Positions 4,123 through 22,822 of a DNA stretch of 64,000 nt are shown here, piece after piece. The position numbers were made by a program, and so were the translations under genes. The notes beneath the pieces are model-generated. The model worked only from the letters and a program-made list of their open reading frames with translations. It had not been told where the DNA came from and searched no databases. Each line of letters opens with the position of its first letter. The first letter of the stretch is position 1. The DNA is from Nanobdellota archaeon (GTDB lineage Archaea; Aenigmatarchaeota; Aenigmatarchaeia; QMZP01). The stretch spans positions 470,834 through 534,833 of the forward strand of contig JAHIVW010000003.1 of NCBI GenBank assembly GCA_018816245.1, in the 5' to 3' direction.

Positions 4123-4186
4123 ACTGATTCTTCGTTCTTGAGACATTAAAATTGGTGATTTAAGCAGGGAAGACCAACTCCTTTTC

Positions 4187-4924
4187 ATGACCTACCCGGT
4201 GACAAAACTGATCATTGCTATCAATGTGATCGTTTTTCTCCTCGTGTTTTCGTTCCCTGAAACCGCCCGGGAACTGATCTTCCTCTCCTTCAGCTTCTCC
4301 GCCGGCACCTCGGGAGAGATCTGGCGATGGATTACCAGCATGTTTCTCCATGTGAGCGCGAGCCATATCGTCCTCAACATGCTGGGACTCTGGTACTTCG
4401 GGAAGGTTCTCGAACGGTCAGTATCGCGGCAATGGTTCTTGGCCATCTACTTCATCTCCGGGCTGCTGGGGAACTTCGCGTTCATGATGACGTCAGGTGC
4501 ACCGGTTGTTGGGGCATCAGGAGCAGTCTTCGGTGTCCTTGGTGCAGCGATGCTCCTGAATCCGATGAAACCGGCAAAGATCTTCATCTTCCCGCTCCCG
4601 CTGGGTATTGTCGGGATCCTGTTTCTCTTGTTTGAAACCATGGTCATTTTCTTCCAACCTGTTGAATTCGGGCATGTTGCAACGATTGCACACATTGCCG
4701 GTGTGATTGCCGGCGGGATGTTCGGGGCCTTCTATAAACCGAAACAAGCGCTGAAAAGTAGTTTGTTTCTTGCGGTCTCGCTGATCCTGCTCATTGCACT
4801 GAATCCCATCTTCTCGCTCATCACGAGTGTTGGTGGGTTTATCCACTGGATCATCGAACAAGTTGCTGGTCTTGTCTTGTACACCTTAGCGGCACTCCTT
4901 TCCTATGTTTGGGCGGCTTTCTGA
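4187..4924 (+). CDS. Rhomboid-family intramembrane serine protease
   Basis: Polytopic membrane protein with the GxSG active-site motif (GASGAVFGVLGAAML) and the downstream catalytic His helix (HIAHIAGVIAGG). Confidence 0.8.
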   Translation: MTYPVTKLIIAINVIVFLLVFSFPETARELIFLSFSFSAGTSGEIWRWITSMFLHVSASHIVLNMLGLWYFGKVLERSVSRQWFLAIYFISGLLGNFAFMMTSGAPVVGASGAVFGVLGAAMLLNPMKPAKIFIFPLPLGIVGILFLLFETMVIFFQPVEFGHVATIAHIAGVIAGGMFGAFYKPKQALKSSLFLAVSLILLIALNPIFSLITSVGGFIHWIIEQVAGLVLYTLAALLSYVWAAF

Positions 4925-7934: not shown

Positions 7935-9026
7935 ATGAATCCACCGATCCTGATTCGGATGAAGCTTGTTGAGGTGCTCCGCCGCCCAGGCCCAAAGCGG
8001 TTGTTTTACCACCGCGACACGGATGGGACAGCGAGCGCAGCCCAACTCCTTCGGCTCGACAAGACCTTTCGTCCTGTCCCCCTGGAAAGCGCAAACCTCA
8101 CAAAAGCACAGATCACCGAGCTTACTGAAGAAAAGCCACAGGCAGTGGTGTTCGTTGACCTGCCCGTTGACCAGATCAATGACGTGCTCCAAGGACTTGC
8201 CGCAGCACTTCCTGAAACCATATTCCTCATCCTTGATCACCATATCATGACCAATCAGCTCACTGGGAAGAACATCACCTCTTGGAATCCCCGGCAGCAG
8301 GACCCAGAGGCATATATCCCTTCCAGTGCGCAGGTCTACTATCTCCTCAAGGTAGCGGAGAAGCAAACGGTTCCGTGGATCGCCGGCATTGGGGTTATCG
8401 GCGACTACGGGCACACAACCTGTGCTGATATCCTGGACGATGTGAAGGAAACCGATCCCCAACTCCTGCAGCCAGCAGGAGAACTTGCTGACCTGACCCG
8501 TGATTCTGCGTTTCAAACCACCCTCGCCTTCGGTGCAGAACTCGTGAATGCTGCCATCACGGTCAAGGGGGCGGACGGCACCGAGGATGCGCTTGCGGCG
8601 CTGGTCACAGCACCAGCATTTGAGGTGTTTGTGAAAACACCGTCACTTCGTGCAGCGTACGATGCATTGAAACGAGAACTCAAGAACGTTATGACAGCAG
8701 CAGAAAAGAAAGCTGAAATCAACGAGGAGCTCAACGTCGCCTTCTATCCAATTGAATCAACGATGTCACTTGCAGCAACCGTTGCAACGCTCATTTCAGA
8801 AAAGTACCCAGACAGAACCATCCTCATCAGGAAACGTTCCGGGAATGGATTCAAGGTGTCACTCCGCAACCAGGCAGGGCGAATCAATGTTGGAGAACTT
8901 GCGAAGCGTGCAAGTATTGATATTGGTTCTGGCGGCGGTCATGAGAAAGCGGCTGGCGCATTTGTGGTTGACTGGGAAGAATTTCACGACCGGGTACTCG
9001 CGTTCCTTGAGGAATGGCAGCGCTAG
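7935..9026 (+). CDS. DHH-family phosphoesterase (DHH plus DHHA1; RecJ/NrnA-like nuclease)
   Basis: Motifs HRDTDG, ILDHH and GGGHEKAAG (DHHA1). Probable start MNPPILIRMKL at 7935, divergent from the 888-aa gene with about 40 bp between them. Confidence 0.75.
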   Translation: MNPPILIRMKLVEVLRRPGPKRLFYHRDTDGTASAAQLLRLDKTFRPVPLESANLTKAQITELTEEKPQAVVFVDLPVDQINDVLQGLAAALPETIFLILDHHIMTNQLTGKNITSWNPRQQDPEAYIPSSAQVYYLLKVAEKQTVPWIAGIGVIGDYGHTTCADILDDVKETDPQLLQPAGELADLTRDSAFQTTLAFGAELVNAAITVKGADGTEDALAALVTAPAFEVFVKTPSLRAAYDALKRELKNVMTAAEKKAEINEELNVAFYPIESTMSLAATVATLISEKYPDRTILIRKRSGNGFKVSLRNQAGRINVGELAKRASIDIGSGGGHEKAAGAFVVDWEEFHDRVLAFLEEWQR

Positions 9027-9676
9027 TCAAGCCTGAGGACCAGAAACAGGTGATCCTTTTCGTAAGGATCAAGGACAACTTCTTCAACGATGGTGAAAAC
9101 CCGCTGCAGTTTTTTCTTTTCCTGTGCGTACACCTCTCGCGGTTTTTTCACAACGTTGATACTCCGGGCCTTGATCACCATCATGGCCGTCCCTCCTGGT
9201 GCCAAAAACTTCTCGGCGTTTTTGATCATGATCTCGGCCTGATCGTCTGTTGCCACGTCCTGGAAGAGGAGATCAACTGGCTCAATCCAGCCGTACTCCT
9301 GCGGTTTCTTTGCGTTCGCGAGAATCGGGACAATATTCAACCGCTTTTCTGCAAGCCGGGTCAGATCGCGGATCGACCGCTCGGATACCTCAACACCGTA
9401 GATGGTGCCATCCAGACCGAAGATGTCAGAGAAGTAGGATGCAGTTGACCCAGAGGCGATTCCCAGGTAGAGCATGGTCTTTCCCGGTGCAACGGGAAAG
9501 GTTTTGAGGCCCTTTTTGATCGCTGCCGCTGGCTTGCTCTTGTTCGGATCCCAGACGCGGTATTCCTGCTTCCCGATCGTGAGGAGCTTCTCGGAGAGGG
9601 ACCGGTAGCCAGGGACAAGGTTCCTCGTGACCAAGAGCTTGTTGTGCTTCCACACTCCCGGGAAGAGAGGAATCAT
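9023..9676 (-). CDS. flpA: Fibrillarin-like rRNA/tRNA 2'-O-methyltransferase
   Basis: EYRVWDPNKSKPAAAIKKGL...MLYLGIASGSTASYFSDIFGLDGTIYGVEVS matches fibrillarin across its whole length. Confidence 0.9.
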   Translation of the reverse strand: MIPLFPGVWKHNKLLVTRNLVPGYRSLSEKLLTIGKQEYRVWDPNKSKPAAAIKKGLKTFPVAPGKTMLYLGIASGSTASYFSDIFGLDGTIYGVEVSERSIRDLTRLAEKRLNIVPILANAKKPQEYGWIEPVDLLFQDVATDDQAEIMIKNAEKFLAPGGTAMMVIKARSINVVKKPREVYAQEKKKLQRVFTIVEEVVLDPYEKDHLFLVLRLD

Positions 9677-9698: not shown

Positions 9699-10031
9699 TT
9701 AAGACGTCGAGCGAACGAGGGGCACGATCAGGGTTTTTGCCACAAGTCCGTAGATCGTTGCAGTGAAGTTCCCCCGCGGTTCTTTCCGGATCGGCTGAAT
9801 GATCCCAGCAGTATGGAGCTGTTTGATTGTGTAATAGACGGTCTGTTCATGGACTCCCAGGGAGCGGGCAAGATCAAGAGGGCACTGTGGGGTACTAGCG
9901 AGCTGAGCGAGAATCCTGCGAGCGAGGTTGTTCGAGAGAATCCGCAGCGACGCAGGGTCACGGCGAGCGGTTGGTACAGGACCGATCGAAGCGCTCATAG
10001 GGAGACCGGCACCGTCACAGGAGTATGTCAA
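9699..10031 (-). CDS. Winged-helix (ArsR-type) transcriptional regulator
   Basis: LARRILAQLASTPQCPLDLARSLGVHEQTVYYTIKQLHTAGII is a HTH_20/ArsR-like fold. TATA-like cttttaaaaag sits about 25 nt upstream of the start. Confidence 0.6.
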   Translation of the reverse strand: MTYSCDGAGLPMSASIGPVPTARRDPASLRILSNNLARRILAQLASTPQCPLDLARSLGVHEQTVYYTIKQLHTAGIIQPIRKEPRGNFTATIYGLVAKTLIVPLVRSTS

Positions 10032-10176: not shown

Positions 10177-11355
10177 ATGACAGCAAAGAAAAAGATCTCG
10201 ATTATTGCAACCGGAGGCACCATTGCAAGTAGCATTGGTGAGAAAGGACTTACCCCAACCTACAAACTTGTGAAACTTCTTGAACAGATTCCCGATATTT
10301 TCGAATTCGTAGAGATCCATCCTGTTCAACTCATGAACAAAGACAGTTCAGACATGCAACCTGAGGATTGGGTCACAATTGCAAAGCAGGTCTGGGAAGA
10401 ATTGGAAAAATGTGACGGTGTTGTGATTGTCCATGGAACCGATACCATGGCGTACTCCTCATCGATTCTCTCGTTCATGTTGGGAAATATCAAGAAACCG
10501 GTGATCCTAACAGGATCGCAACGACCGTGGACAGAACCCAACAGCGATGCGCGACAAAATCTGATCGATGCTGTCCGGACAGCATCATATGGAACAGAAC
10601 ATTCGTTGAAAGGCGTCTATGTGGTGTTCCATGGAAAAATCATCAAGGGGTGCCGAACCCGAAAATCGAAGTATCTCGAACGCTCTGAACTGGACGCCTT
10701 TGAGACCGTCAACTATCCGCTCGTCGGGATGGTGAGCAAGGAGCGGATCATGATCAATCCTATTCTATTACAGACGATGCAGCCCCACGAAACAAATGAA
10801 GCCGCGATGCTTGATACCAAGATCGGGCGTAATGTCCTCATGGTGACGTTGACACCGGGGCTGAACCCGCTCATCTTCGATTCGATCCGGAACAAGTGTG
10901 ATGCGATCATTATCCAGGCATACGGCCTTGGTGGCATGCCGATCCACGGCAAAGAAACCCTGCTTCCCATGGTCAAACAGTGGATCGATTCAGGGAAGAT
11001 TGTCGCGATTACGTCGCAAGCCTGTTACGAAACAGACCTCTCCCAGTACGAGGTTGGCCGACGGTTCCTTGAACTCGGTGTTATTCCGACACTGGACATG
11101 ACGTTGGAATCAGCATATACCAAGTTAATGTGGGTCCTAGGACACACCAAAGATCAGGAAGAAGTTAAGAAGATGTTGTGGAAGAATTATGTTGGTGAAA
11201 TCTGGCCGCTGAACGGTGAGAAAGGCAGACGGCAGGTTGATGTCATGAGTGAAATGGCGCGGTCACATGAACTGACCCGCATCTTGTATGAAAGCAACAA
11301 CCAACTGATGAATGTAATGGCGGATATCTACACAAAGACACAGCATCAAATCTAG
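10177..11355 (+). CDS. L-asparaginase family protein (type I asparaginase-like, with a C-terminal extension)
   Basis: IIATGGTIAS at residue 8, HGTDTMAYSS and TGSQRP motifs. No N-terminal GatD-specific domain. Confidence 0.75.
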   Translation: MTAKKKISIIATGGTIASSIGEKGLTPTYKLVKLLEQIPDIFEFVEIHPVQLMNKDSSDMQPEDWVTIAKQVWEELEKCDGVVIVHGTDTMAYSSSILSFMLGNIKKPVILTGSQRPWTEPNSDARQNLIDAVRTASYGTEHSLKGVYVVFHGKIIKGCRTRKSKYLERSELDAFETVNYPLVGMVSKERIMINPILLQTMQPHETNEAAMLDTKIGRNVLMVTLTPGLNPLIFDSIRNKCDAIIIQAYGLGGMPIHGKETLLPMVKQWIDSGKIVAITSQACYETDLSQYEVGRRFLELGVIPTLDMTLESAYTKLMWVLGHTKDQEEVKKMLWKNYVGEIWPLNGEKGRRQVDVMSEMARSHELTRILYESNNQLMNVMADIYTKTQHQI

Positions 11356-11822
11356 AGTTTCTTTTTCCCTTGCTGAGCTTCATTCGCTGACAGAACGATC
11401 ATGGTTTGGGAGTTCTCAACACCTTCAATGTTCCGGAGATCGTGGATCACGAATTGATTGAGTTCATCAATGTTCTTAACCCGGACCTTGATGATGATGT
11501 CCGTGCCTCCAGTGACAATGTAGATCTCTTCGACCGGCGGGAGGCGGGAGATGGTTCTTGCCAAATCTTCCTGGGAGATATGGTCTCCATCAGCAGTGTA
11601 GTACCGGACTGTGACGAGAATGAACGAGAGGATCTCCTTCCCGAGCTTTCGGTGATCGATCAACGCGACATAGCCTTTGATGTAGCCTTCTTTCTCCATC
11701 TTCTTGATGCGGTTATGAACTGTGGTGATGGGAACGAGGAGCTTCTTCGAGATCTGCCGGGACGTCAGCTTGGCATTCTTCTGAAGGAGATCGAGGATTT
11801 TCTGGCTTTTCTCGTCAAGCAT
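11352..11822 (-). CDS. lrp: Lrp/AsnC-family transcriptional regulator
   Basis: N-terminal HTH (KILDLLQKNAKLTSRQISKKLLVPITTVHNRIKKMEKEGYIKGY) plus a C-terminal RAM/AsnC domain. Confidence 0.85.
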   Translation of the reverse strand: MLDEKSQKILDLLQKNAKLTSRQISKKLLVPITTVHNRIKKMEKEGYIKGYVALIDHRKLGKEILSFILVTVRYYTADGDHISQEDLARTISRLPPVEEIYIVTGGTDIIIKVRVKNIDELNQFVIHDLRNIEGVENSQTMIVLSANEAQQGKKKL

Positions 11823-12126
11823 AGGCCTTTTTTGAATGGAATATTTTTAAAGATTTTCTGTTCCATGAGACGATTTTCCTTTTTCTCTTTTTTTGCTGTT
11901 TTTTCTCCCACTTTCCCCTAGGTATGACCCCCATTTCCCACTGGTGGTACAAATAATTTCCATAATTATGGTTGAACTTGGAAAATATTCTTTTAATTAA
12001 CAGTGTAATACAGTTATAAATTTTAAAAAAAGAATATTTTTCCAATTTTTTTACCACTTTCTTTATATGTCCGCGCTTCAATTGTCTTCCAGATCCTTCC
12101 GGAACTGAAGTCTATGAAGAAGACGG
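11823..12126. promoter_or_regulatory. AT-rich (roughly 30% GC) divergent intergenic/promoter island between lrp and the Cys-rich paralogue array. Contains short perfect palindromes, candidate Lrp operators.
   Basis: GC drops sharply relative to flanks. ccataattatgg (12-bp perfect palindrome) and ttttaattaa are present. The only ORF across it (11815-12081) is low complexity. Confidence 0.4.
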
Positions 12127-12618
12127 GTGCTGAAAATGGAACGAAATCATGTCCCGATGTGCAGCTTGTGCAGAGAACCGATCACCAACTTTGTCTGCCA
12201 GGACCATTTAGCCCGGAATATCGCTCGCTGGCTCCCTGACGACGTGGTTCAGAGCTTTGATCGGTTCCACACCCGTCTTTCTCGCATGTTTTTTACGGCC
12301 GATTCGGTCGAGCAGCTCCCACTTGGGAAACAGGGGTGTACGTGCCGCACGCACGATCCCGTGTTGTGTGTGCACTGTTATACCAGGGAGGTCAATTCCT
12401 GGCTGACGCAGCGAAACCCTGGTCTCGCAACACAGTTTCGAGGAATTTTCTCCTTTGGATTCGCCCATGACGGGTCACCGCGATTCAGGCGCAACAATTC
12501 GTTGCGCCTTGATCACGACCCACCTGAGCATGAGTTTGGCCTGTGTGATGTGTGTGGTGAGTACGGTGATGAACTGACCCAGCAGAATGGACAGTGGGTC
12601 TGCCAGTCGTGTGAATAA
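12127..12618 (+). CDS. Cys-rich multi-zinc-ribbon protein, paralogue 1 (163 aa), function unknown
   Basis: CSLCx8CxxH at the N-terminus, CTCx7CVHC in the middle, C-terminal ribbon CDVCGEYGDELTQQNGQWVCQSC. Clear paralogy with the following two ORFs. Confidence 0.6.
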   Translation: MLKMERNHVPMCSLCREPITNFVCQDHLARNIARWLPDDVVQSFDRFHTRLSRMFFTADSVEQLPLGKQGCTCRTHDPVLCVHCYTREVNSWLTQRNPGLATQFRGIFSFGFAHDGSPRFRRNNSLRLDHDPPEHEFGLCDVCGEYGDELTQQNGQWVCQSCE

Positions 12619-12630
12619 ACGAGGTGTCAA

Positions 12631-12972
12631 ATGCAACAAGAACCTTCAGTGTGTCGAAATTGTAAGGTACCGTTTCGGCAGTTCATGTGCACCAGCTGTC
12701 TTTCGAGTAATATCAAGATACGGCTCCCTGGAACCGTGCATGCCTCGTTTGATATGTTTATACAAACGATGAATAAAGCTTATTACCAACAGGGCGCCCA
12801 GCTTGAACATTGTGTCCACTGTACACGACTTGTTCAAGCGCCTGTCTGCCAATTCTGTTACCTTGTCGAGGCATCGCGATGGTTGAAGGAACATGAAACA
12901 CATTCGCCACGATTCCTCCGATCACCGATGTTGCAAGCACCGCAAACCCCTGGAATCCAGGAAGGTGGGTGA
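12631..12972 (+). CDS. Cys-rich zinc-ribbon protein, paralogue 2 (N-terminal and middle modules only)
   Basis: CRNCKVPFRQFMCTSCLSSNIKIRLPGTVHASFDMF aligns with CSLCREPITNFVCQDHLARNIARWLPDDVVQSFDRF of paralogue 1. SPRFLRSPML aligns with SPRFRRNNSL. Ends with TGA two nucleotides before the next ATG. Confidence 0.6.
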   Translation: MQQEPSVCRNCKVPFRQFMCTSCLSSNIKIRLPGTVHASFDMFIQTMNKAYYQQGAQLEHCVHCTRLVQAPVCQFCYLVEASRWLKEHETHSPRFLRSPMLQAPQTPGIQEGG

Positions 12973-12973
12973 T

Positions 12974-13075
12974 ATGGACGATGCAGAAATATGTGACGAG
13001 TGCGGCGGTCCAGCAGAGGAATTGTACGTCAAGAATGGTCGCTGGGTCTGTGATATCTGCTGGTTCGGCGGCTAG
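12974..13075 (+). CDS. Mini zinc-ribbon protein (33 aa) equivalent to the C-terminal ribbon of paralogue 1. Possibly the detached 3' part of paralogue 2.
   Basis: MDDAEICDECGGPAEELYVKNGRWVCDICWFGG versus CDVCGEYGDELTQQNGQWVCQSCE. ATG lies 2 nt after the stop of 12631-12972, in a different frame. Confidence 0.45.
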   Translation: MDDAEICDECGGPAEELYVKNGRWVCDICWFGG

Positions 13076-13109
13076 GTCTTAAAAAGGCCCCTTGCCCATA
13101 ATACTCTTC

Positions 13110-14945
13110 ATGCGCGGGGTGCTGCTTGCTGTTTTTCTTGCAAGTATTCTAACGATGGCAGGATCAGCAGCAGCACAAACGCCGCAACTCACGTTCATCC
13201 CGCAGCAATTTTCCGCAAACGCGAGTTTTCTGGTGTATGCCACAACCTCTGTTCAGGAACCAGCGCGCCTCACCTACTCTGTTGCTGGCTCCTATGGTGG
13301 CGGTGCAGCAGCGGCAACCGGGAGTATCCCGTTTGACGGAGACCGGTTCTTCTGCTATTTCTCCCACACTGATGCTGACGCAACCTGCGGCCCGAGCCCG
13401 TTCACGATCATCACAACTGAGTTCGGTCCTGACACCTTTTTCGACATGATTACCCTCTTCCAGACAACCGATGACCCTGGCACCGAGACCGCGTTCCAGG
13501 TTGCCACAGGATCCATTAGAATTGTTCCAACGATCTCAATCTCGGATAACGGTACGGTGAGCGTGCTGGCATCAACATTAACTATTATTGGCAATGCTGG
13601 TGCTCTGGTAAACGGGATGACAATTGAGATCTACCATGAGAACCTGACCCTAGTGAAGGTAATCGCTCCAACGTTCAACCAGATTACCGGGTTCTGGGCA
13701 ACAAACTTCCAACTCAAGCCGGGGAAGTACTACCTCTCCTTCTTCGCCCCGTCCCAAGCTGATCCAGATGATTTCGGTGGGGAAGTGTTCCCCATCACTG
13801 TGCCCGGGACAGAAGGAACGACCTGCACCTCCACTGCTGCAGTGGAAGGTAATCTCCCGCTTGTTGTTGAACCAGCAGTGTTTGATGCGGTTATTAGTGC
13901 GAACACACCGTTCACCAAAAAAGGATTCAAGATCACCAACCTCGGCGGGAGCACGCTTCCCAATATTTCAGTGACGATTCCAAGCGCGTTTGCGTCTTAT
14001 CTTTCCATTTCCCTTGGCAACAGCACGACACTGGCACCCAACGCGAGTATGCTCTACTCCGTGACGATTCTGAGTCTTCAGGACGCGGTGAGCATCAACG
14101 CATTCATCAACCTGACGAGCAACGGCACCTTGGTCGGGCAGATTCCTGTGACCATTGGAACGATCCTCCTTGATTCTGATACTGCCTCCTGTCCGGGGGT
14201 TGCTGGTGAATTCACCGTGACCCCGTCGACCTGGTTTGCCCAAGGCGTTGTTGGAGAAACACTCACCAAGGAATTCACCATCAAGAATAATGCCGACAAG
14301 GCCATGGAAGTCAAGGTCACCACGTCGACAAGCCTCACTGATGCGACGTACGAGCCCCTGACTGTGCAGGCAGGGAAGACTGACACACTTACAGTTACCC
14401 TTGAGCCAGACACCGCGAAGACCTACCAAGGAACCCTTTCGATTGGTGATGTCGCCGGGGTCATGGGAACACAGTCCATTGGGGTGAGTCTACAGGTGTT
14501 CGATGATGTGAGTTCGCAACTCGACGGGCTCCAGGAAGACCTTGATTATTTCGAGCTCTCCTTGTCTTCGACGACAGCGAATCAGTTGGCATCGGTCATC
14601 AGCGACATCCAGGACCTGATTGATGATGCACAGAACAATATTGCGATCAAGCAGTATGGTGTTGCAGCTGAGACCTACAGCATTGCCCAGGAGAAGTTCA
14701 ATTCTCTGGATGCCGTGAGTCCGTACCTTGGCACCGTGACACCAATCAATGGTGATACAGGTGAAGGCCTTGATCTCTTCACGTTCGTGATTCCTGCTGT
14801 TGTTGTTTTGGTCGTGCTTGCTGTTCTCATGATCTTCCTCAAGAAGCGGAAATCGAAGGTCTCCAAGGAAGAATCCATTCTTGAGGACGAGTTCCAGGAA
14901 GAGCCACAAGAAGAATCCAAGGACGATTTTGAAGAAGAGTTCTAA
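13110..14945 (+). CDS. Secreted surface protein (about 610 aa) with N-terminal signal peptide and C-terminal TM anchor plus acidic tail
   Basis: MRGVLLAVFLASILTMAGSAAAQ signal peptide. Thr/Ser-rich beta-type sequence. C-terminal FVIPAVVVLVVLAVLMIFLKKRKSK then an E/D-rich tail. Confidence 0.7.
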   Translation: MRGVLLAVFLASILTMAGSAAAQTPQLTFIPQQFSANASFLVYATTSVQEPARLTYSVAGSYGGGAAAATGSIPFDGDRFFCYFSHTDADATCGPSPFTIITTEFGPDTFFDMITLFQTTDDPGTETAFQVATGSIRIVPTISISDNGTVSVLASTLTIIGNAGALVNGMTIEIYHENLTLVKVIAPTFNQITGFWATNFQLKPGKYYLSFFAPSQADPDDFGGEVFPITVPGTEGTTCTSTAAVEGNLPLVVEPAVFDAVISANTPFTKKGFKITNLGGSTLPNISVTIPSAFASYLSISLGNSTTLAPNASMLYSVTILSLQDAVSINAFINLTSNGTLVGQIPVTIGTILLDSDTASCPGVAGEFTVTPSTWFAQGVVGETLTKEFTIKNNADKAMEVKVTTSTSLTDATYEPLTVQAGKTDTLTVTLEPDTAKTYQGTLSIGDVAGVMGTQSIGVSLQVFDDVSSQLDGLQEDLDYFELSLSSTTANQLASVISDIQDLIDDAQNNIAIKQYGVAAETYSIAQEKFNSLDAVSPYLGTVTPINGDTGEGLDLFTFVIPAVVVLVVLAVLMIFLKKRKSKVSKEESILEDEFQEEPQEESKDDFEEEF

Positions 14946-16372
14946 GCGAGCTCGTCCAGCGGCGTGTCCTTCGGTGATTTCTTTCTCAGGACGAAGACAA
15001 CCACAATGAGGAGAATAACCGCAATCGGGACAATGAAGGTGATAACAAAAGAGAAGATGATGTTGGATGCCCCCTTACCAGGTTCTTCCGCAGGAATTAC
15101 GTGTTGTTGGTCAACTGGTAATTTTTCCGTGGTTTCATTCTCCAAAGACGCCAGCTGGTTTTGGACAGCGCCGTACTGGTCGAGGTTTGATCCGTACTGA
15201 GCGTTTTCGTAACTCGTGTACCATGCATCTGCAATCTCGTTTGCCTGCTCTTTCTGATCAGCTGACAAATTGGGATCAGCTTGGAGTAAGGCAAGCTGAT
15301 GTTGAATGTCACTGACGAGCTCGTCAGTGGTGAGAGCAGCTGACGCCTTCTTGACCACATCGCCGCTTGTGCCGATCGCGGTAATACCATAGAATGCGTT
15401 CGGGTCATGTGGGGTGATCGTGAACGGCACGGAAACGAATTCCCCTGTACCGAGGGTCACGTTCTGCTCTGTCATAGAATAGGTCAAGCCAGGGAACTCG
15501 ACAAGCTTGATGGCGACCGTGAGTGGAGTCTGGCCGTTCTTGAGCTGCAATGAGAATTCAGCAGGCTGCTCGATCGGAACATCAAGGCTTTGCGGAAAAA
15601 GGGACATGGTGAAGGTTGGGGGAAGCTGTTGTTGTTCTGAAACGTGCAGGGTCGCGGTTGTTTGCTTGGTGCAGCTGGTTCCTGTGCACTCGGTCATGGT
15701 TGCCGTAACCGTGATCGAGTAATCGCCTTCTGTTGCTGGCGCCGTGACTGTGACAGGGATGCTGACGAGTGGATTGAAAAGGTCTGTTGTCACACGGGTT
15801 GTCTGCAGGGATGCATCGATTGCTGACGTGATACTCAGATCAAATGCTTGCTCTGCAAAAGACTCAAGGCGGAACTCAAGTGAGTGGGAGGTTCCTAGTT
15901 GTGCTGTAGGGTGGGAATCAAGGAACCCGATGGCAAACAGGTCGTTGTTCCCAAGCGGGTCGTTCGGTTCTTGGGGTGTGCCGATGTCAACATCGCCGAT
16001 GGTGGAAGAACACACCTGGAGAGTATAGGTTTTGGTGAATGCAAGCGCTGGTGCGGTTGCGGTGACCGTGAACGGGCCAGTGCAGGCAGTTTCATTGGCT
16101 TGGCCGAAGAAGCAGATCGGCACAATGACGGTGTTGTTGTCGTCGGTCCCGAAGTTGGCAGTGGTGAGGTCGTCCCACTCGGACGAGGCGCTGCTTTCGA
16201 GGGTGTAGTTGATCTTTTGGTCAGTGAAGACGCCGAGATCGTCGGGGAGGGTGATAGAGACACAGGAGACGTTCCCGGGCGGGACCGTGAAGACGAGGTT
16301 GTCGGTGAGGGGGAGGGCCTGGGCCACTGTTGGGAGAAGGAACACGAGGAAAAGGGAAATGATTTTTTTCAT
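14942..16372 (-). CDS. Secreted surface protein (476 aa) with signal peptide and C-terminal TM anchor. Last gene of the surface-protein operon.
   Basis: MKKIISLFLVFLLPTVAQA signal. C-terminal IIFSFVITFIVPIAVILLIVVVFVLRKKSPKD. Confidence 0.7.
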   Translation of the reverse strand: MKKIISLFLVFLLPTVAQALPLTDNLVFTVPPGNVSCVSITLPDDLGVFTDQKINYTLESSASSEWDDLTTANFGTDDNNTVIVPICFFGQANETACTGPFTVTATAPALAFTKTYTLQVCSSTIGDVDIGTPQEPNDPLGNNDLFAIGFLDSHPTAQLGTSHSLEFRLESFAEQAFDLSITSAIDASLQTTRVTTDLFNPLVSIPVTVTAPATEGDYSITVTATMTECTGTSCTKQTTATLHVSEQQQLPPTFTMSLFPQSLDVPIEQPAEFSLQLKNGQTPLTVAIKLVEFPGLTYSMTEQNVTLGTGEFVSVPFTITPHDPNAFYGITAIGTSGDVVKKASAALTTDELVSDIQHQLALLQADPNLSADQKEQANEIADAWYTSYENAQYGSNLDQYGAVQNQLASLENETTEKLPVDQQHVIPAEEPGKGASNIIFSFVITFIVPIAVILLIVVVFVLRKKSPKDTPLDELA

Positions 16373-16376
16373 GGGG

Positions 16377-19300
16377 TTAGGTAAACGTGACGGTTATTTC
16401 TTTTGGTTGTGCGGCAAAGGTGTCTGTTGTTTTATCATAAACGTCGACTGTAATGGTATATGTTTTAGCTTGATTAACAGGATAGCTACAAACATATTCA
16501 ATTATTTTTTGGGATTGAAAAGGCTCGAGAAGCGTATTGCCATGATTATCTTTTTCACAATCAATTTCCACTGCATATTCATGCGCTGTTTGGAAATTAT
16601 CAATTGTAAGGATGAAGGGAATGTCACGGTAGTTTGTAGAATCCGCTTCAGAAGCAAAGGTAAATGTTTCAGGAGAAAGGCTGAATTGGGGAACACAAAC
16701 GTCACCAGATGTCTCATTACATGGTTCACTAGAACTCGAGGTTCCGCTATCACCCGGCGACGTTCCCCCGCCGCTTGTTCCGCTCAGTTCTTCTATTTTT
16801 GCCGCAAGAAGATTGTCAATGACAGTTTGAAGTGTAGTGTCCGCGTTGGGTGGAGCCTGTCCAGCTTCAAGGAAGGCGATGAACTCCGTCATTGTCGGCA
16901 ACACGGCATTTAATTTATCCTTAACACTTGTCTTAGTTGTCTTCTCAATCGCGGCATTCACGGTTTGTTGCGCTGCTTTGAGGGCAGTTGCTGCATCAAC
17001 AGGTTTGGGAGAGGCAAGCTGCTTTGCCTTCCCAACAGCGAGGATCGCACTGTTGATCATCTCAGCAGCAGTCGTTGCCGTCACCGTCCCGTACCCGGAC
17101 GGAAGGCTGCTCCCACATTCTCCCCAAGCAGTAATACACTCGTCCTTTGGATCCGCAGTCCCGGTTTTTAAGCAGCCGCTCGTTGGGTCTCCGACACATA
17201 GGCAGACGGTGAGTGAGTCGACATACTCATTATTACAAATGAGCTTGAATGTTTTCGCGCTCTCCCCTTCAAATGCTGTAATTGCGTCAATATTTTTGTA
17301 CTCGCTAATCGGGATAAGCGATCCGTCCTCCTTCTGGATCATCGGGTTTTGGCACGGAACCGATGACTGATACTGGCTGACAAAGAGTGATAATTTCGAT
17401 CTTCCCAGGGTTGTGTAGCCCCCGCTTCCTCCAATAACAATCTGCTGTCCGACGTCGCCACCATACCCGCAGCACTTCGTCGCTCCTGGCACATCATTAC
17501 ATTTTGCGTACAAACTCGTCGTATCGCTCAGATCCTGAATAGATTCAATCGCATTCGCGAAGTTTCCGGCTGCCTGACCGAATTTCTGCGCCTCGGCTGA
17601 GATCACGTTCATGTTCGCCTGCATGTTCCCTATAATACCGTTGACCGACCCGAGGTTCACACACGCGAGCATGCCGTTGAAGCAGGAGAGATCCTTGCCA
17701 CAGTAGCCGGCGTCAAGCTGGTGCTGCTGGACCTGCAGGCAGGCTTCCATCTTCAGGAACTCGATCTCAATGTTCTCTGCATCAATCATGCTCTTCATCA
17801 TCGCAGACAGCATGTTGCAGATGCTGCCAATGGCAGTGAGCACAAAGGTCCCTGCGGCTGTATACGCGGTAATCGTGTTCTTGAATTCCCGGGAGCCGAG
17901 CTTGGACGTCATCTTCGAGATGCCGCTGTGCACTGCAGCATCATTGTTGCCGGCGATCTGGCCCTGGAATTCCGACGGCTTCAAGGCATCATAGAACGCG
18001 TATCCGATCCCTACGATCGTGAGCGCGGTTGCAGCAATCGATGCGTACAGGCAGAACTTCTGCAAACTGATGAGCTTCTGGGAAATTTCAAGGATGTCCT
18101 GGATTTTCTTCTGGATGTCTTGGATGAGTTCCTGGGTAATGTCAAACAAGGATGTGAACGTCTGCCGCACCTTGATGGCAGCATAGTCGTCGGTGAGCAG
18201 CAACAATTCCCGTTTTTGGGCGCCGTTGTTGTAGCTGATCAAAACCGAAATGTCGTTCGGCTCATAGGTGTTTGTATCACCCTTTGAACACTCAGGATCA
18301 GCAGGGATCGCAGCCGTACAGTTGAGGGTGAGGTTGCTCGTCCCGAACACGAGGACCTCCTGCTGGCAATAGATGTTCTGGGTCGATTCCCCGTCAAGGG
18401 TTCCGAAGATGTTCTCGATCTGGGTGCCTGACGGCTGATTCTTGATGTGTGCCTTGATGTTCACGAAGTGGGGGATCTCGCAGTTCTTGAAGCTGACCGG
18501 CTGGTTCGGATGATCAACAACAAGTTTGATGTCCCCTTTCTCCTGGCAGCTCCCAGCAATGTTGTCAACCCGATGGTAATCACAGTAGTATGCGTCTCCG
18601 TACATAGGATCCTTGGCACAGGGACAGTCAACGCAGGAGTTTGCTGCGCTTTCCCCGTACTGCGGCTCGCACACGCCGTTGTTCGGGTGGTATTGGGGAA
18701 CAAGGATGAGATCAGCAAAGGATGCGGTCAGATGCTGCTGGATGATTCCAGACGGATTGATATAGGAACCATCAGGATAGGAAATAGTAAGGTTCAGGGT
18801 ATTGGGACCAAGGGTTTCATAGGGCAGCGAACATTCAGGGATCGGAGGAAGGGTAAGTTGGCACGTCAAGAGGCCAGTCGGGCTGCCAACAACAACTTCC
18901 TTGCAGGTGATGGGATACGGTTGTGGTTCTCCATTCTTCATGTAGAAGACCGCAAGGATTTCTGATTCAGCGGGCTTGTTGATGATTTGGGTAGTGAGAT
19001 TGATCAGATGGGTCTGCGTACAGTCAGACACGTTCCGCGGGGACACGGAAAGGACAGTCAGGCCAACGTCATTGATGAGCTTGCATTGGGTAATTGCATC
19101 ACAATATTCACCAGCCCCAGCGCAGCCGCAGTCAACGCAACAGGTGGCGGCGCTTTCCCCCTTCTGGTTGTCACACAACCCGTCACCGCAGAGCGATGAA
19201 GGAACTGTGACATCGGAGAAGCCGCTCTTCAGATCCTTGGTAATCGTGATCGGGCCATCACTAAAGCTCGTCTTGAAGGTGATGCTGTTGCTTTGAATAA

Positions 19301-20930
19301 AGTAGGTGTTTTCTTTGCTGTAATCAGGAAGGAAGAGGGGGATGCTGCAATTGTACACATGATTTGGTGCCCCGCCAACACAGGTGATCGAGCCCGTAGT
19401 GGCCCCAACGGTTTCGTTCTTGTTCTCAATGATTTTCCCCAGTTGGTACTCAACATTCGTCACCGAAAGGTCCGTCGGCGGATTGTTGATTTTGGCAACA
19501 ATATCAATTGTGTCACCGGCGGGGTTGTAATCAGGAATAAAGGACGTGACCGAGAGCACGGACAATGAAATCGTTGCCTCTGATGAACAGACCTTGGTTC
19601 CGGCATTGCAGAAGAATCCTGACGGACAGCTGCAGTCGTAATTGACGGTGATATCAGGAATTACGGCAGTGAGTTCCTTGAGGATCGTGGTTGCCCCATC
19701 AGTGTAGGGGATGGTTGTACTTACCTTATTGGAATTGATAATGTAGCTTCCGAGCCCACATGACACCTTTGATGAGAGTTGTGTAACACAGGTGTAGGTG
19801 TTCCCGATGCCTTTTGGGCAGCTCACGGAGAACTGTTTCGCACCGAAGGAGAGGAGTGCAGTGATTTGTGCCGGGAGACTTGCTGGTGGATTGTTGATCT
19901 GGACGGTGACGTTGACTGGCACGGCCTGGTTACAATTAGTAACTGGGGAAACCAAGGCAGAGGTCACGGACATGGTGATGTCATTGGGGTTCTTGCAGCT
20001 GCCGGTTTCCGGATCACCGCCTGCAATATCACAGTAGGCGTTCAGCCCGCACCCGCAATCATAACAGCAACTGGTTGCGTCTTCACCGAGACTGCCTTCA
20101 CAGGTTCCGTCGCCGCAGGTGAAGGACGGGTTCTTGTTCAGGACAATAGGATTGCCGATTCCGCTTGTGGTTTTTGGAAATACGAAAAAGAAATCTTTAC
20201 TGATGGCCGTGATCGTGGTGCTGCTCGGTTGAGCAGTTTCAAAGCTGGGAAGTTCAATTTCGTTGGTGTCAGCGCCGATGCCAAACAAGGAGAGCGCACC
20301 GCTAAAGAGGACGCTCTCTGCCCAATTGAAGGGAAGCATCTGGAAATTGCTGATAAAGTTCTTTGTGGGGTTGAGGAACTGGGTATCAGCAACATAGAGA
20401 TTTGCATCCGGGAGTTCGTAGTTGAAGGTTTCAAATGCATTGTAGCTGATCCGGTTCACCGTGTCCCAGAACCCAAGCCAGGCAACCTGTCCTTCCTGAT
20501 CTTTCAATTTTACGAGCGTGAGAAGATTGGCTGTTTGGGGATAGGTTGGCCCTCCTACCTTTTGTGAAATATCATTCCAGAGGAGTTCAGTGTCGACGAA
20601 GGAATCGAAAATAATCGGCTCAGCTTGAACACATTGTGAAGGATTCAATGCCTTGCATTTGTAGAGGAAGATTTTCTCGATCGAGTGCGCCAAGCTGGCG
20701 CTGTTCACGGTGATGCCGACCTTGACCTTGCTCCATGAAATGTCCGAGGGGTCGTGGCTAACCGTAATCTGCCGGTTGATGAGTTTCGAGGGGGTGACGA
20801 TCAAGGAGTCCTCTTCATTCCCGTTAACAAAGAGATGGATGGTTGCGGCACTGGCCATGGGCATGGAGAGGACCAAGATGCTCGCTGCCACCGCAAAGGC
20901 AGGAATCAGGAAGAGGGAAACATTTTTCAT
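16377..20930 (-). CDS. Giant (about 1517 aa) secreted protein with three CGDGxC...CxDC(G/P)C Cys-rich modules. Probable start MKNVSLFLIPAFAVAASILVLSMPMASA at 20930.
   Basis: Signal peptide. Modules at roughly 20045-20125 (TCGDGTCEGSLGEDATSCCYDCGCG), 19110-19195 (LCGDGLCDNQKGESAATCCVDCGCAG) and 18615-18680 (GVCEPQYGESAANSCVDCPC). Long Thr/Ser-rich beta-like regions. Confidence 0.75.
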   Translation of the reverse strand: MKNVSLFLIPAFAVAASILVLSMPMASAATIHLFVNGNEEDSLIVTPSKLINRQITVSHDPSDISWSKVKVGITVNSASLAHSIEKIFLYKCKALNPSQCVQAEPIIFDSFVDTELLWNDISQKVGGPTYPQTANLLTLVKLKDQEGQVAWLGFWDTVNRISYNAFETFNYELPDANLYVADTQFLNPTKNFISNFQMLPFNWAESVLFSGALSLFGIGADTNEIELPSFETAQPSSTTITAISKDFFFVFPKTTSGIGNPIVLNKNPSFTCGDGTCEGSLGEDATSCCYDCGCGLNAYCDIAGGDPETGSCKNPNDITMSVTSALVSPVTNCNQAVPVNVTVQINNPPASLPAQITALLSFGAKQFSVSCPKGIGNTYTCVTQLSSKVSCGLGSYIINSNKVSTTIPYTDGATTILKELTAVIPDITVNYDCSCPSGFFCNAGTKVCSSEATISLSVLSVTSFIPDYNPAGDTIDIVAKINNPPTDLSVTNVEYQLGKIIENKNETVGATTGSITCVGGAPNHVYNCSIPLFLPDYSKENTYFIQSNSITFKTSFSDGPITITKDLKSGFSDVTVPSSLCGDGLCDNQKGESAATCCVDCGCAGAGEYCDAITQCKLINDVGLTVLSVSPRNVSDCTQTHLINLTTQIINKPAESEILAVFYMKNGEPQPYPITCKEVVVGSPTGLLTCQLTLPPIPECSLPYETLGPNTLNLTISYPDGSYINPSGIIQQHLTASFADLILVPQYHPNNGVCEPQYGESAANSCVDCPCAKDPMYGDAYYCDYHRVDNIAGSCQEKGDIKLVVDHPNQPVSFKNCEIPHFVNIKAHIKNQPSGTQIENIFGTLDGESTQNIYCQQEVLVFGTSNLTLNCTAAIPADPECSKGDTNTYEPNDISVLISYNNGAQKRELLLLTDDYAAIKVRQTFTSLFDITQELIQDIQKKIQDILEISQKLISLQKFCLYASIAATALTIVGIGYAFYDALKPSEFQGQIAGNNDAAVHSGISKMTSKLGSREFKNTITAYTAAGTFVLTAIGSICNMLSAMMKSMIDAENIEIEFLKMEACLQVQQHQLDAGYCGKDLSCFNGMLACVNLGSVNGIIGNMQANMNVISAEAQKFGQAAGNFANAIESIQDLSDTTSLYAKCNDVPGATKCCGYGGDVGQQIVIGGSGGYTTLGRSKLSLFVSQYQSSVPCQNPMIQKEDGSLIPISEYKNIDAITAFEGESAKTFKLICNNEYVDSLTVCLCVGDPTSGCLKTGTADPKDECITAWGECGSSLPSGYGTVTATTAAEMINSAILAVGKAKQLASPKPVDAATALKAAQQTVNAAIEKTTKTSVKDKLNAVLPTMTEFIAFLEAGQAPPNADTTLQTVIDNLLAAKIEELSGTSGGGTSPGDSGTSSSSEPCNETSGDVCVPQFSLSPETFTFASEADSTNYRDIPFILTIDNFQTAHEYAVEIDCEKDNHGNTLLEPFQSQKIIEYVCSYPVNQAKTYTITVDVYDKTTDTFAAQPKEITVTFT

Positions 20931-20934
20931 AGGA

Positions 20935-22788
20935 TCATGCGTCCAGTTCTGCCCACGTGACCGTGCAGGCCTTGTTTGCTGGGAACGGGGCCTCAAGGAC
21001 CGGACCGATACCGCAGCGCTTCAGGACTTCGGAGAGGATGATCATGCGGGCGACTGCTTCTTGTTCATTTCCGAAGCTGAACCCTAAATAATAGGGGAGA
21101 TACACGTAAAGGTCTTTGCCGTCCAGATCTTCGGTGATTTGGTAGTTTGTGGTCATGGCACCGTACATGGTGAAGTCCTCCTCGTCAAGGAGGAGGCCGT
21201 TGACGAAGTACTGACCAGGACTGATCTTGGGAACCGTGATCTGGGAGGTCAGACCGAACTCTTGGAGGAAATGCTTCCCGTTCTGGGACTCCAGGAACAG
21301 GTGCACTACTTCGGTGGGATACTTCGTCCGGATGGGATTGATATCATTCGTGAAGATCTGGTACGTCTCTGAAACGGTATTGTTCGTGATGAACACGTCA
21401 TAGAAGTTCAGGCGGATGCTTGGTTGCTTCTGAAGCGTCGCATGAACATCGACAATCTCAGCAGGATCTTTGTTCTGGAGGTAGTCTTCATAGTTTGCTG
21501 CAGTAATGCGCAACGGGCCGACACCACAGGGAACAAGGTTTGAGAATGTCCCGGTTGCATCTGTCTTACCCAAAGTGCAGCCAAGGTAGGTGACGGTTGC
21601 GTCCTTGATGGGAGAACCATCAGTTGTAGAAACGGTAATGGAACTGTAGCATAACGAGGAGGCACAGAGCGCCTGCTGTTCTTCAGGGATTGGTGACACG
21701 ATCGTTGCAGTGAGATCGGGTGTATTCTCCTTGATGGTGACATCCACAGCGAACTGGAAGATGTTGTCGGTCAAGGAATCCTTGACGCGGACAATGGCAG
21801 GATACGTCATACTATATTTCACGAGAATGGGATCACTGCGACACTTTCCTGTAAGCGGGACAAGTTCAGGAATGACCACCAAGGTGTTGGGATCAACCTG
21901 GAAGGTGCTGGGGTTCAGAGAGAACCCGTCCGGCAGGTGGAAGGAAACATCAAGCGCTTCGTAGATCTTGCCATTGATTTCAGGAAGCCCGTACTTTGGT
22001 GATGCAGAACTGGTGAACGTGTTCTGCGGAACCTTGTTTGGTAAATAGGTGTGGGCCAGGGTCACGGCAATTCGTTCCTCGACCGCTGTCCTGAACTCAT
22101 CATATGTCTTTGTGATATGATCACTACAATCGTACGTCGTCACCAGAAGTGGTGTGGTTTGGACTTTGTTTTCAAGTGGTGAAAGTGCCATGCTAATGAT
22201 GGTGAAATGTGCGAGGTAGGTCTTCTGCTTGTCACTCGTGACGTAGTGTTCAGCGAAGTCGAGTACTTCGCCAAAGGCTGTTGGAACCGTAACAGAGAAT
22301 GGTTTGTTGATGGCATACCCTTCGACACTCACGGGAAGCTGGACCGTGACCGCGATTTCCCCGCTTCTAATCGTGCTGTCAACAAGCGGCGAGCCAGTGA
22401 CCACGTTGGGAATGGTGAGTGACTCAATGGCACCGGGCAGGTTTGCTTCAAGATAGTCTGCCACGCCGACACGGAAGTTGCTTTCAACAGGCGGGATCGA
22501 GACAGCACCCTGCTTTGACCAATAGGTTACTTTCCTTCCAAGGAAGGAAACACCGTCTTGTGTTGGTGTCAGGAGTCCGCCGTTCCGGGAAAGTTTCTGG
22601 AGCGTGTCAATCACGGCACCATGGATCACGTTCTCGATGGTGGCTTCAACGGTTCGTTGCTTCTCAGCAACCCCAGAAGGAACTGGTGAGGGAGTCAGGT
22701 CGCCAGCGAGGAACGCATAGGCGATCACGACGACCGCAACAATGATGATACCGAGAATTGCAAAGAATTCGGTCTGCCCGACCCTCAT
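20935..22788 (-). CDS. 617-aa secreted or surface protein with a pilin-like (class III-like) N-terminus. First gene of the surface-protein operon.
   Basis: MRVG/QTEFFAILGIIIVAVVVIAYAFLAG (Arg-x-Gly followed by a long hydrophobic helix). TATA box tatatatat at 22811-22819, about 25 nt upstream. Confidence 0.7.
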   Translation of the reverse strand: MRVGQTEFFAILGIIIVAVVVIAYAFLAGDLTPSPVPSGVAEKQRTVEATIENVIHGAVIDTLQKLSRNGGLLTPTQDGVSFLGRKVTYWSKQGAVSIPPVESNFRVGVADYLEANLPGAIESLTIPNVVTGSPLVDSTIRSGEIAVTVQLPVSVEGYAINKPFSVTVPTAFGEVLDFAEHYVTSDKQKTYLAHFTIISMALSPLENKVQTTPLLVTTYDCSDHITKTYDEFRTAVEERIAVTLAHTYLPNKVPQNTFTSSASPKYGLPEINGKIYEALDVSFHLPDGFSLNPSTFQVDPNTLVVIPELVPLTGKCRSDPILVKYSMTYPAIVRVKDSLTDNIFQFAVDVTIKENTPDLTATIVSPIPEEQQALCASSLCYSSITVSTTDGSPIKDATVTYLGCTLGKTDATGTFSNLVPCGVGPLRITAANYEDYLQNKDPAEIVDVHATLQKQPSIRLNFYDVFITNNTVSETYQIFTNDINPIRTKYPTEVVHLFLESQNGKHFLQEFGLTSQITVPKISPGQYFVNGLLLDEEDFTMYGAMTTNYQITEDLDGKDLYVYLPYYLGFSFGNEQEAVARMIILSEVLKRCGIGPVLEAPFPANKACTVTWAELDA

Positions 22789-22810
22789 GGGTATAGAATT
22801 GCTTCGGCGC

Positions 22811-22819
22811 TATATATAT
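22811..22819 (-). promoter_or_regulatory. TATA box for the surface-protein operon (leaderless-type spacing to the start at 22788)
   Basis: ctatatatatt lies 23-31 nt upstream of the ATG of the 617-aa gene. Confidence 0.4.
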
Positions 22820-22822
22820 TCT

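Follow-up and report, generated by a model that had tools for sequence, protein, structure and literature searches.

Linker fission as the probable origin of a split zinc-ribbon gene within a Cys-rich protein family of DPANN archaea

A 64,000-nucleotide (nt) stretch of DNA from a Nanobdellota archaeon (GTDB lineage Archaea; Aenigmatarchaeota; Aenigmatarchaeia; QMZP01; assembly GCA_018816245.1, contig JAHIVW010000003.1, positions 470,834 to 534,833), referred to here at its full length as the window and numbered from its first letter, carries on its forward strand three adjacent open reading frames (ORFs) for small Cys-rich proteins. As delimited by ORF calls, motifs and hidden Markov model (HMM) matches, these are paralogue 1 (12136..12618), a full-length family member with an ATG start, 160 amino acids (aa) and 12 Cys; paralogue 2 (12631..12972), a 113-aa 'body' that has the first eight Cys, corresponding to the N-domain only, plus a predicted disordered tail resembling the remnant of a linker; and a mini gene (12974..13075) for a 33-aa acidic protein that appears to be the zinc ribbon, or third module, detached from paralogue 2. 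Comparison with relatives makes it probable that the second copy underwent fission in its linker, producing adjacent and probably coupled cistrons that have since been maintained, and that the junction between them is neither an error nor a frameshift site.

The three ORFs are closely packed. The stop of paralogue 1 lies 12 nt before the ATG of paralogue 2, which is preceded at a distance of 4 nt by a Shine-Dalgarno (SD)-like GAGGTG (12621..12626, + strand). Paralogue 2 ends in ...IQEGG-TGA, with the TGA at 12970-12972, and one T alone separates this stop from the ATG of the mini ORF (12974; stop codon at 13073-13075), which is in the +1 frame relative to paralogue 2 and encodes MDDAEICDECGGPAEELYVKNGRWVCDICWFGG, a protein with an isoelectric point of 4.05 and a net charge of -6. 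The junction as a whole, AGGTGG-G-TGA-T-ATG (12963..12976, + strand), consists of an SD-like AGGTGG whose distance to the ATG is 5 nt, followed by the stop codon that ends the body, the T and the start of the mini ORF.

Paralogues 1 and 2 are 27% identical by BLASTP (E=2e-10), including an SPRF(R/L)R stretch, and the mini ORF is 50% identical to the ribbon of paralogue 1 (E=5e-8); judged by these scores, the similarity among the three ORFs is far greater than chance would give. Against the family profile described below, paralogue 1 aligns over positions 2-156 (E=1e-47) and paralogue 2 over positions 2-91 only (E=1.5e-26), while an HMM made without the mini ORF matches the latter at positions 114-155 (E=5e-7); body and mini ORF taken together (positions 2-91 plus 114-155) are colinear with the single-ORF homologues. 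An earlier note on this DNA, made from the letters and their translations, had placed the ORFs, the Cys motifs and the TGA where ORF and motif checks also find them. Its reading of paralogue 2 as the first two modules plus SPRF(R/L)R followed by a stop, of the 33-aa ORF in another frame as the third module, and of the two together as the equivalent of gene 1, agrees with the matches given above. The length of 163 aa that it assigned to paralogue 1 corresponds to an existing ORF from GTG 12127, but ATG 12136 is the more likely start, being used by three gene callers and fitting the N-termini of the family.

Support for the split being genuine comes from a second assembly and from a related genome. 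Over 20 kb that include the junction, an independent Logan assembly has the identical sequence, which all but rules out the sequencing error at the junction that had been considered at the outset. Moreover, two short contigs from two different other samples, L051 and L052, carry the end of a paralogue 1 orthologue (74% identical to paralogue 1 over the part present on L051) together with a paralogue 2 orthologue, P0009, that is 58% identical to paralogue 2 and ends in ...LEELEGG-TGA, with its stop at the same position. The junction of these contigs is GGAGGGCGGGTGA-CCGGCA-ATG, in which a 6-nt spacer separates the TGA from a ribbon ORF in frame 0; they read GAG GGC GGG TGA CCG GCA ATG GGG AAT ACC GAG CTG TGC GAC GAG TGC GGC GGA CC, the ribbon start translating to MGNTELCDECGG(P). 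In a nucleotide alignment of the window with this relative, a conserved GGA(A/G)GG(T/C)GGGTGA is followed by a spacer of 1 versus 6 nt and by ATGG...TG(T/C)GACGAGTGCGGCGG(T/A)CC. Both genomes thus retain the stop, an SD-like sequence, the ATG and the ribbon ORF, but they differ in the frame relation (0 in the relative, +1 in the window).

The ribbon itself bears the marks of continued conservation. Over the seven codons of CDECGGP, the window and L052 show two synonymous differences and zero non-synonymous ones. Compared with its counterparts in fused relatives (L005, L026 and L007), the window ribbon shows 60-64% identity and retains the four Cys and the G-W motif; the body is 27-34% identical to anything outside its own orthologue group. 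By these measures the mini ribbon is not decaying, and the comparisons indicate that the split is real, old and maintained, predating the 42% divergence of the body.

To see which relatives have a fused gene and which a split one, 52 fetched loci were scanned in six frames with the family HMM, a comparison that the earlier note had proposed. A single fused gene was found in ~45 of the loci, and tandem pairs of para1-like and para2-like genes are confined to the window, L051/L052 and L053, with the split shared between the window and L051/L052. Locus L026 has an asparaginase-lrp pair upstream (lrp 62% identical) and one fused gene. In L053, whose lrp is 67% identical, the para1-like gene (671-1120) ends in ...TDTNWI, leaving its ribbon without the last CxxC. 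A different arrangement is found in L003, an uncultured-archaeon metagenome-assembled genome (MAG), where a full-length gene is followed by two ribbon-only genes at 1792-1971 (59 aa) and 2006-2203 (65 aa), each with an SD-like sequence; from these stand-alone ribbons it follows that the ribbon module became an independent gene more than once.

The profile built from the three window ORFs was used in an exhaustive HMMER search of 1.84 billion representatives, which returned at least 105 clusters (50% identity) at E<=1e-3 and 50 clusters at E<=1e-10; the earlier note had recognised no homologue, and the clusters found here are all unannotated. It had also allowed that the ORFs might lack conservation in any relative, and all three in fact match the family profile. 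Most members are 140-190 aa long and align across the whole profile; others, of 95-135 aa, match its N-terminal two thirds only, and a few members of 33-82 aa cover only the ribbon part. At 12 positions of the family alignment, at least 90% of the sequences have Cys or, rarely, His, and these positions form six conserved Cys/His pairs, of which the N-domain has four and the ribbon two. All six Cys pairs are present in 107 of the ~190 family sequences, and 38 of them are N-domain-only. Paralogue 1 (C9-x2-C12-x8-C21-x2-H24, C68-x-C70-x7-C78-x2-C81, C137-x2-C140-x15-C156-x2-C159) holds all six pairs, with His as the fourth ligand; pairs 1-4 are found in paralogue 2 and pairs 5-6 in the mini ORF. 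We infer that the proteins bind zinc.

Members of known organism come from Aenigmatarchaeota, Nanoarchaeota or 'uncultured archaeon' MAGs, mostly from Aenigmatarchaeota, and the closest syntenic contigs are Aenigmatarchaeota MAGs. Searching word-indexed proteins with the family alignment yielded 36 proteins, all 'hypothetical' or unnamed; with paralogue 1 as the sole query, the same kind of search gave no match beyond itself. The three ORFs and 53 family members had nothing above threshold in Pfam and NCBIfam, where only generic ribbon matches appeared: the Pfam zinc-ribbon matches (Zn_ribbon_RRN7, DUF7573, YjdM and DZR) reached 14-17 bits against gathering cut-offs of 24-31, and the best Pfam E-value among the 53 members was 1e-5, in a few sequences only. 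Sequence searches of the PDB with two profiles gave a best E of 0.015, no family member was found in a scan of viral contigs, and a metagenome scan using para2-specific patterns produced no match. As far as these searches reach, the family is real, previously undescribed and, as found here, restricted to DPANN archaea.

Gene prediction has largely passed over this locus. The NCBI annotation of this MAG omits paralogue 1, paralogue 2 and the 33-aa ORF are uncalled both there and by the Logan gene caller, and GEM is the only catalogue that calls the ribbon ORF, as a 60-aa version from 12893. None of the sources examined has a correct call for the paralogue 2 body or the 33-aa gene, and neither the 113-aa nor the 33-aa sequence was found in a 15-billion-protein collection.

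Disrupted copies are also seen elsewhere in the family. The tail of one library protein (P0051), ...SVMSAGST..., is the +1-frame reading of the ribbon motif CDECGEY, which makes this protein either a copy frameshifted in another lineage or the product of an assembly error. In L047, a distant low-GC member, an in-frame TAG (622-624) falls within the conserved I-x-x-WL helix of the N-domain, and could reflect a pseudogene, an error or recoding.

An AlphaFold2 model of paralogue 1, computed from a 39-sequence alignment, predicts two confident domains (predicted local distance difference test (pLDDT) ~90) on either side of a flexible segment. The N-domain is helical, with pLDDT blocks of 87-96 and helices at residues 22-32, 35-53, 79-93 and 95-104; the linker (110-133) has a pLDDT below 50; and residues 135-160 form a confident small beta ribbon with strands at 148-150 and 153-155. 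Modelled alone, the paralogue 2 body has the same N-domain (pLDDT 85-94 for residues 1-95) and a tail, residues 98-113, with a pLDDT below 50. Profile-profile comparison identifies 'module 1' and 'module 2' as homologous repeats (94.7% probability, E=5.9e-8), each consisting of CxxC-x8-CxxC and then a helix ending in WL, and finds the ribbon unrelated to the two N-domain repeats. The protein is therefore best described not as three ribbons but as a zinc ribbon joined by a tether to a duplicated two-zinc N-domain: the three Zn motifs listed in the earlier note are present, but the first two are repeats of one folded domain instead of independent ribbons. Foldseek comparison of both models with the PDB, and of the body model with BFVD, gave no match with E<0.05 and a maximum template modelling score (TM-score) of 0.41.

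How the zinc ions would be shared within the N-domain can be approached from the pattern of ligand loss. In 13 sequences, Cys pairs 2 and 3 are lost jointly and pairs 1 and 4 are kept, which suggests that zinc is shared by pairs 1+4 and 2+3; the repeat architecture and the x8 spacing suggest instead local sites made of pairs 1+2 and 3+4. Collapsed members are encoded at L008 3851-4132 (93 aa) and L009 ~3938-4234 (98 aa), where a hybrid N-terminal unit, made of the first CxxC and the fourth CxxC, is fused straight to the ribbon; these genes retain only pair 1, pair 4 and the ribbon, which likewise points to sites shared by pairs 1+4 and 2+3.

On the favoured reading, the locus is probably a three-cistron operon (paralogue 1, paralogue 2 body and mini ribbon) that provides two versions of one zinc protein. 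The ancestor would have been a single chain made of a two-repeat N-domain, a disordered linker of 13-44 residues, which is the range of linker lengths across the family, and an acidic C4 zinc ribbon. We infer that a tandem duplication took place in this sub-lineage; that copy 2 then acquired a nonsense mutation in its linker and translation restarted from a Met close by, leaving the in-frame state as in L052; that a 5-nt deletion in the spacer then placed the ribbon in frame +1 in the window lineage, as a later and harmless indel; and that the ribbon gene was lost in the L053 lineage. The stop of the relative is in frame with the ribbon ORF, so that a nonsense mutation followed by restart is the simplest origin. 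The break sits in the segment predicted to be disordered, where a cut of the chain should least disturb folding.

The spacing of stop and start, 1 nt in the window and 6 nt in the relative, makes it probable that the output of the two products is coupled, and the route could be termination-reinitiation, SD-led initiation or both. SD-like motifs stand before both distal cistrons, against a background in which only 5.5% of the internal in-frame start codons in the window have one. In Haloferax volcanii and E. coli, coupling by termination-reinitiation requires overlaps or very short spacers (well under ~20 nt), and closely spaced gene pairs of this kind are enriched for subunits of heteromeric complexes (PMC10666635). 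The spacers of the window (1 nt) and of L052 (6 nt) lie within that reinitiation range, and by analogy with those pairs (PMC10666635) translation of body and ribbon is probably coupled. Of the options weighed in the earlier note, a split into adjacent, probably coupled cistrons is the one favoured by the conserved stop, SD and ATG in L051/L052.

Some observations weigh against this interpretation. SD use is not general in this genome. On L051 and L052 the ribbon ORF can be followed for its first 13 codons, where the contigs run out. Between the window genome and this relative, identity is 58% for paralogue 2 and 74% for paralogue 1, so that paralogue 2 is the faster-evolving copy; it is also without the family-typical EPI and the W of WLP, which leaves room for relaxed constraint. 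In L053, no ribbon ORF follows the para2-like gene (1196-1564), a convergent small membrane-protein ORF being found in its place; together with the truncated ribbon of the para1-like protein, this implies that the ribbon is dispensable in at least one lineage.

The L053 arrangement lends some weight to the view that the body is the sole functional product and that the 33-aa ORF, untranslated or without function, is a remnant heading for loss. Ribbon-less members are natural, as the 38 N-domain-only sequences among ~190 attest, and besides the para2-like gene of L053 there is an N-only gene in L050 that is followed by a convergent gene and, again, by no ribbon ORF. However, the ribbon ORF of the window still has its four Cys, both motifs (CDxCG and GxW) and an identity of 60-64% to fused counterparts, although the split is older than the 42% divergence of the body; an SD and an ATG of its own accompany it in two genomes, and stand-alone ribbon genes with SDs exist in L003. 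A purely vestigial ribbon is, on balance, unlikely. Improbable to a greater degree is programmed +1 frameshifting at GGG-UGA, which would resemble that of prfB: Gly-tRNA would slip from GGG to GGU, aided by AGGUGG, to give a fused product of ~146 aa (...QEGG-DMDDAEICDECGG...), alone or beside the short body. Frameshift sites of the prfB type are well established, and the window has the ingredients of one, namely an in-frame UGA, a GGG P-site codon able to re-pair to GGU, an SD-like sequence upstream and a +1 frame that is open from 12893; as in prfB, the UGA stands behind the SD-like sequence and the downstream domain is in +1. In L051/L052, by contrast, the ribbon is in frame 0 and a +1 shift would yield GDRQWGIPS... 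and miss the ribbon, which rules out a recoding mechanism common to the two genomes. The SD-like element also abuts the slip codon, unlike in prfB, where it is spaced 3 nt upstream, and both genomes retain an ATG with a well-placed SD of its own that a frameshift site would not need.

The least probable account, to which we attach very little weight, is that a plain second full-length paralogue has recently been pseudogenised by a frameshift or only looks broken through an error of sequencing or assembly. Frameshifted or interrupted copies do occur in the family (the P0051 tail and the TAG of L047), and neither the NCBI annotation nor the Logan gene caller recognises paralogue 2 or the 33-aa ORF. 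Against it stand the identity of the sequence in the independent Logan assembly; the presence of the same stop in a 58%-identical orthologue from two other samples, which speaks in particular against a recent event; and a ribbon whose conservation equals or exceeds that of the body, with SD and ATG present in both genomes. Separately, recoding of the TGA at an in-frame stop of the L052 type was considered and ruled out for the window, where readthrough past the TGA meets further stops.

Linker fission into closely spaced cistrons is a known kind of mechanism; the family and its N-domain are undescribed. The arrangement is like that of split genes and coupled pairs, in that adjacent co-directional ORFs are colinear with single-ORF orthologues and the break falls between domains. 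The split genes of Nanoarchaeum equitans are reportedly mostly non-contiguous and encode large enzymes. In the window, unlike in N. equitans, the halves are adjacent, the gene is tiny and an intact fused paralogue lies directly upstream, coupling being assigned here by analogy. Among the features recorded for Nanoarchaeota genomes are split genes (PMC3655853).

The 33-aa product can also be set beside the archaeal one-domain zinc-finger micro-proteins of fewer than 70 aa that form the C(P)XCG class (PMC6562870, PMC10716476, PMC11241148). Like Haloferax volcanii HVO_2753 and HVO_0758 and Halobacterium Brz, it is a single C4 ribbon-like unit. Its own first knuckle, CDECG, fits the motif of the class, but its second knuckle is CDIC-W, without the G, instead of CPXCG, and an HVO_2753-like chain shows no sequence relationship to the family profile (E=0.37). 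In contrast to those micro-proteins, its origin appears traceable to detachment from a larger protein. With generic zinc ribbons (Zn_ribbon_RRN7/TFIIB-type, DUF7573, YjdM/PhnA and DZR, and Spt4 and eL43 in the PDB) the C-terminal module of the family has in common the two-knuckle beta pattern CxxC-x15-CxxC; the family differs from them in that its matches are far below curated thresholds or at E>=0.015, and that the N-domain is without any match.

Charge offers some guidance to how these proteins may act. The ribbon is acidic family-wide, with a mean net charge of -4.2, and the N-domain is near neutral; para2-like N-domains have net charges of +3 to +4 against a family median of -1, the window body being at +4. 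A basic body (+4) and an acidic ribbon (-6) could act together non-covalently, like the tethered domains of the fused protein, and these charges hint that the two probably associate. The acidity of the ribbon argues against its binding nucleic acid directly, and an acidic ribbon combined with a near-neutral helical N-domain fits a protein-binding adaptor better than a nucleic-acid binder. As the likeliest mode of action we tentatively suggest, from sequence features, a zinc-stabilised protein-interaction adaptor whose two domains cooperate in cis or in trans. More speculative, and in our judgement doubtful, is the wider proposal of a lineage-defining factor of Aenigmatarchaeota-like DPANN archaea, with an N-domain fold outside the PDB, an acidic ribbon that is detachable and trans-acting, and a possible link to the HTH_20 protein described below. 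If that were true, the fused, split, ribbon-only (L003) and ribbon-less (L053) forms would represent natural variation within a single interaction system, with free ribbons competing with tethered ones, or replacing them, at a common partner site.

Archaea have many zinc-finger micro-proteins, most of them of obscure origin and role; the window would provide a clean and datable case of the birth of one, with a domain freed at a disordered linker and a fused sister gene that displays the ancestral state. The family as a whole is an unannotated Cys-rich one, widespread in genomes of Aenigmatarchaeota-type DPANN archaea and partly missed by annotation pipelines, so its description has practical value for improved annotation, and the body and ribbon are a tractable pair for interaction tests.

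Upstream of the array, an lrp/AsnC regulator gene (11352..11822, - strand; Pfam PF01037, PF13412 and PF13404) is divergently oriented, and the 313 bp from lrp to paralogue 1 (11823..12135, no strand assigned) form an AT-rich control region with a GC content of 31-34% compared with 51% for the window. The description of this spacer as an AT-rich, palindrome-bearing island next to an Lrp regulator holds, the identity of lrp being supported by Pfam. Its inverted repeats are built on GGAAAATATTC: the 20-nt inverted pair GGAAAATATTC / GAATATTTTTCC occupies 11975-11994 and 12028-12047, ATGGAATATTTTT at 11836-11848 is a degenerate third copy, and a palindrome, CCATAATTATGG, is at 11960-11971. A 9-mer, AATTTCCAT, is common to the control regions of the window, L026 and L053, and with the repeats it makes up a set of candidate Lrp operators. 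The window and L053 also have in common a para1 promoter block, TTTCCA..TTTTTTACC.CTTT.TTTATATG, at 12039-12069.

The adjacency of array and lrp, to which the earlier note had drawn attention, is found in the window, L026 and L053 and not at the other loci with a readable upstream flank; it is a sub-lineage feature, and lrp was rejected as a defining partner of the family. At ~20 other loci, tblastn synteny shows the family gene divergent from a gene for an HTH_20 (ArsR-like winged-helix) protein, with fibrillarin upstream and ATP-dependent DNA ligase downstream. The window keeps HTH_20 (9699..9998, - strand; Pfam PF12840), fibrillarin (9023-9676) and the ligase (1123-4188), but asparaginase-lrp separates HTH_20 from the array and the ligase has moved. 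Because the whole neighbourhood is syntenic across these small genomes, conserved neighbours alone do not indicate function. The collapsed genes of L008 and L009 adjoin a 307-aa long form of the HTH_20 protein.

The ATP-dependent DNA ligase (1123-4188, - strand) is 1021 aa long, compared with 567 aa in relatives. Its insertion of ~320 aa (residues ~392 to ~714) lies within the adenylation domain and has a LAGLIDADG_3 match at 594-655; it is probably an intein with a homing endonuclease. Directly downstream of the array, 13092-24397 encodes large predicted surface proteins of 617, 476, 1539, 617 and 524 aa. Two of them, encoded at 13092-14945 and 14942-16372, begin with signal-like sequences and carry membrane anchors at their C-termini. 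The first of these two (617 aa) gives weak matches to immunoglobulin-like (Ig-like)/ASH domains and has a 49%-identical homologue in L053 at the same position.

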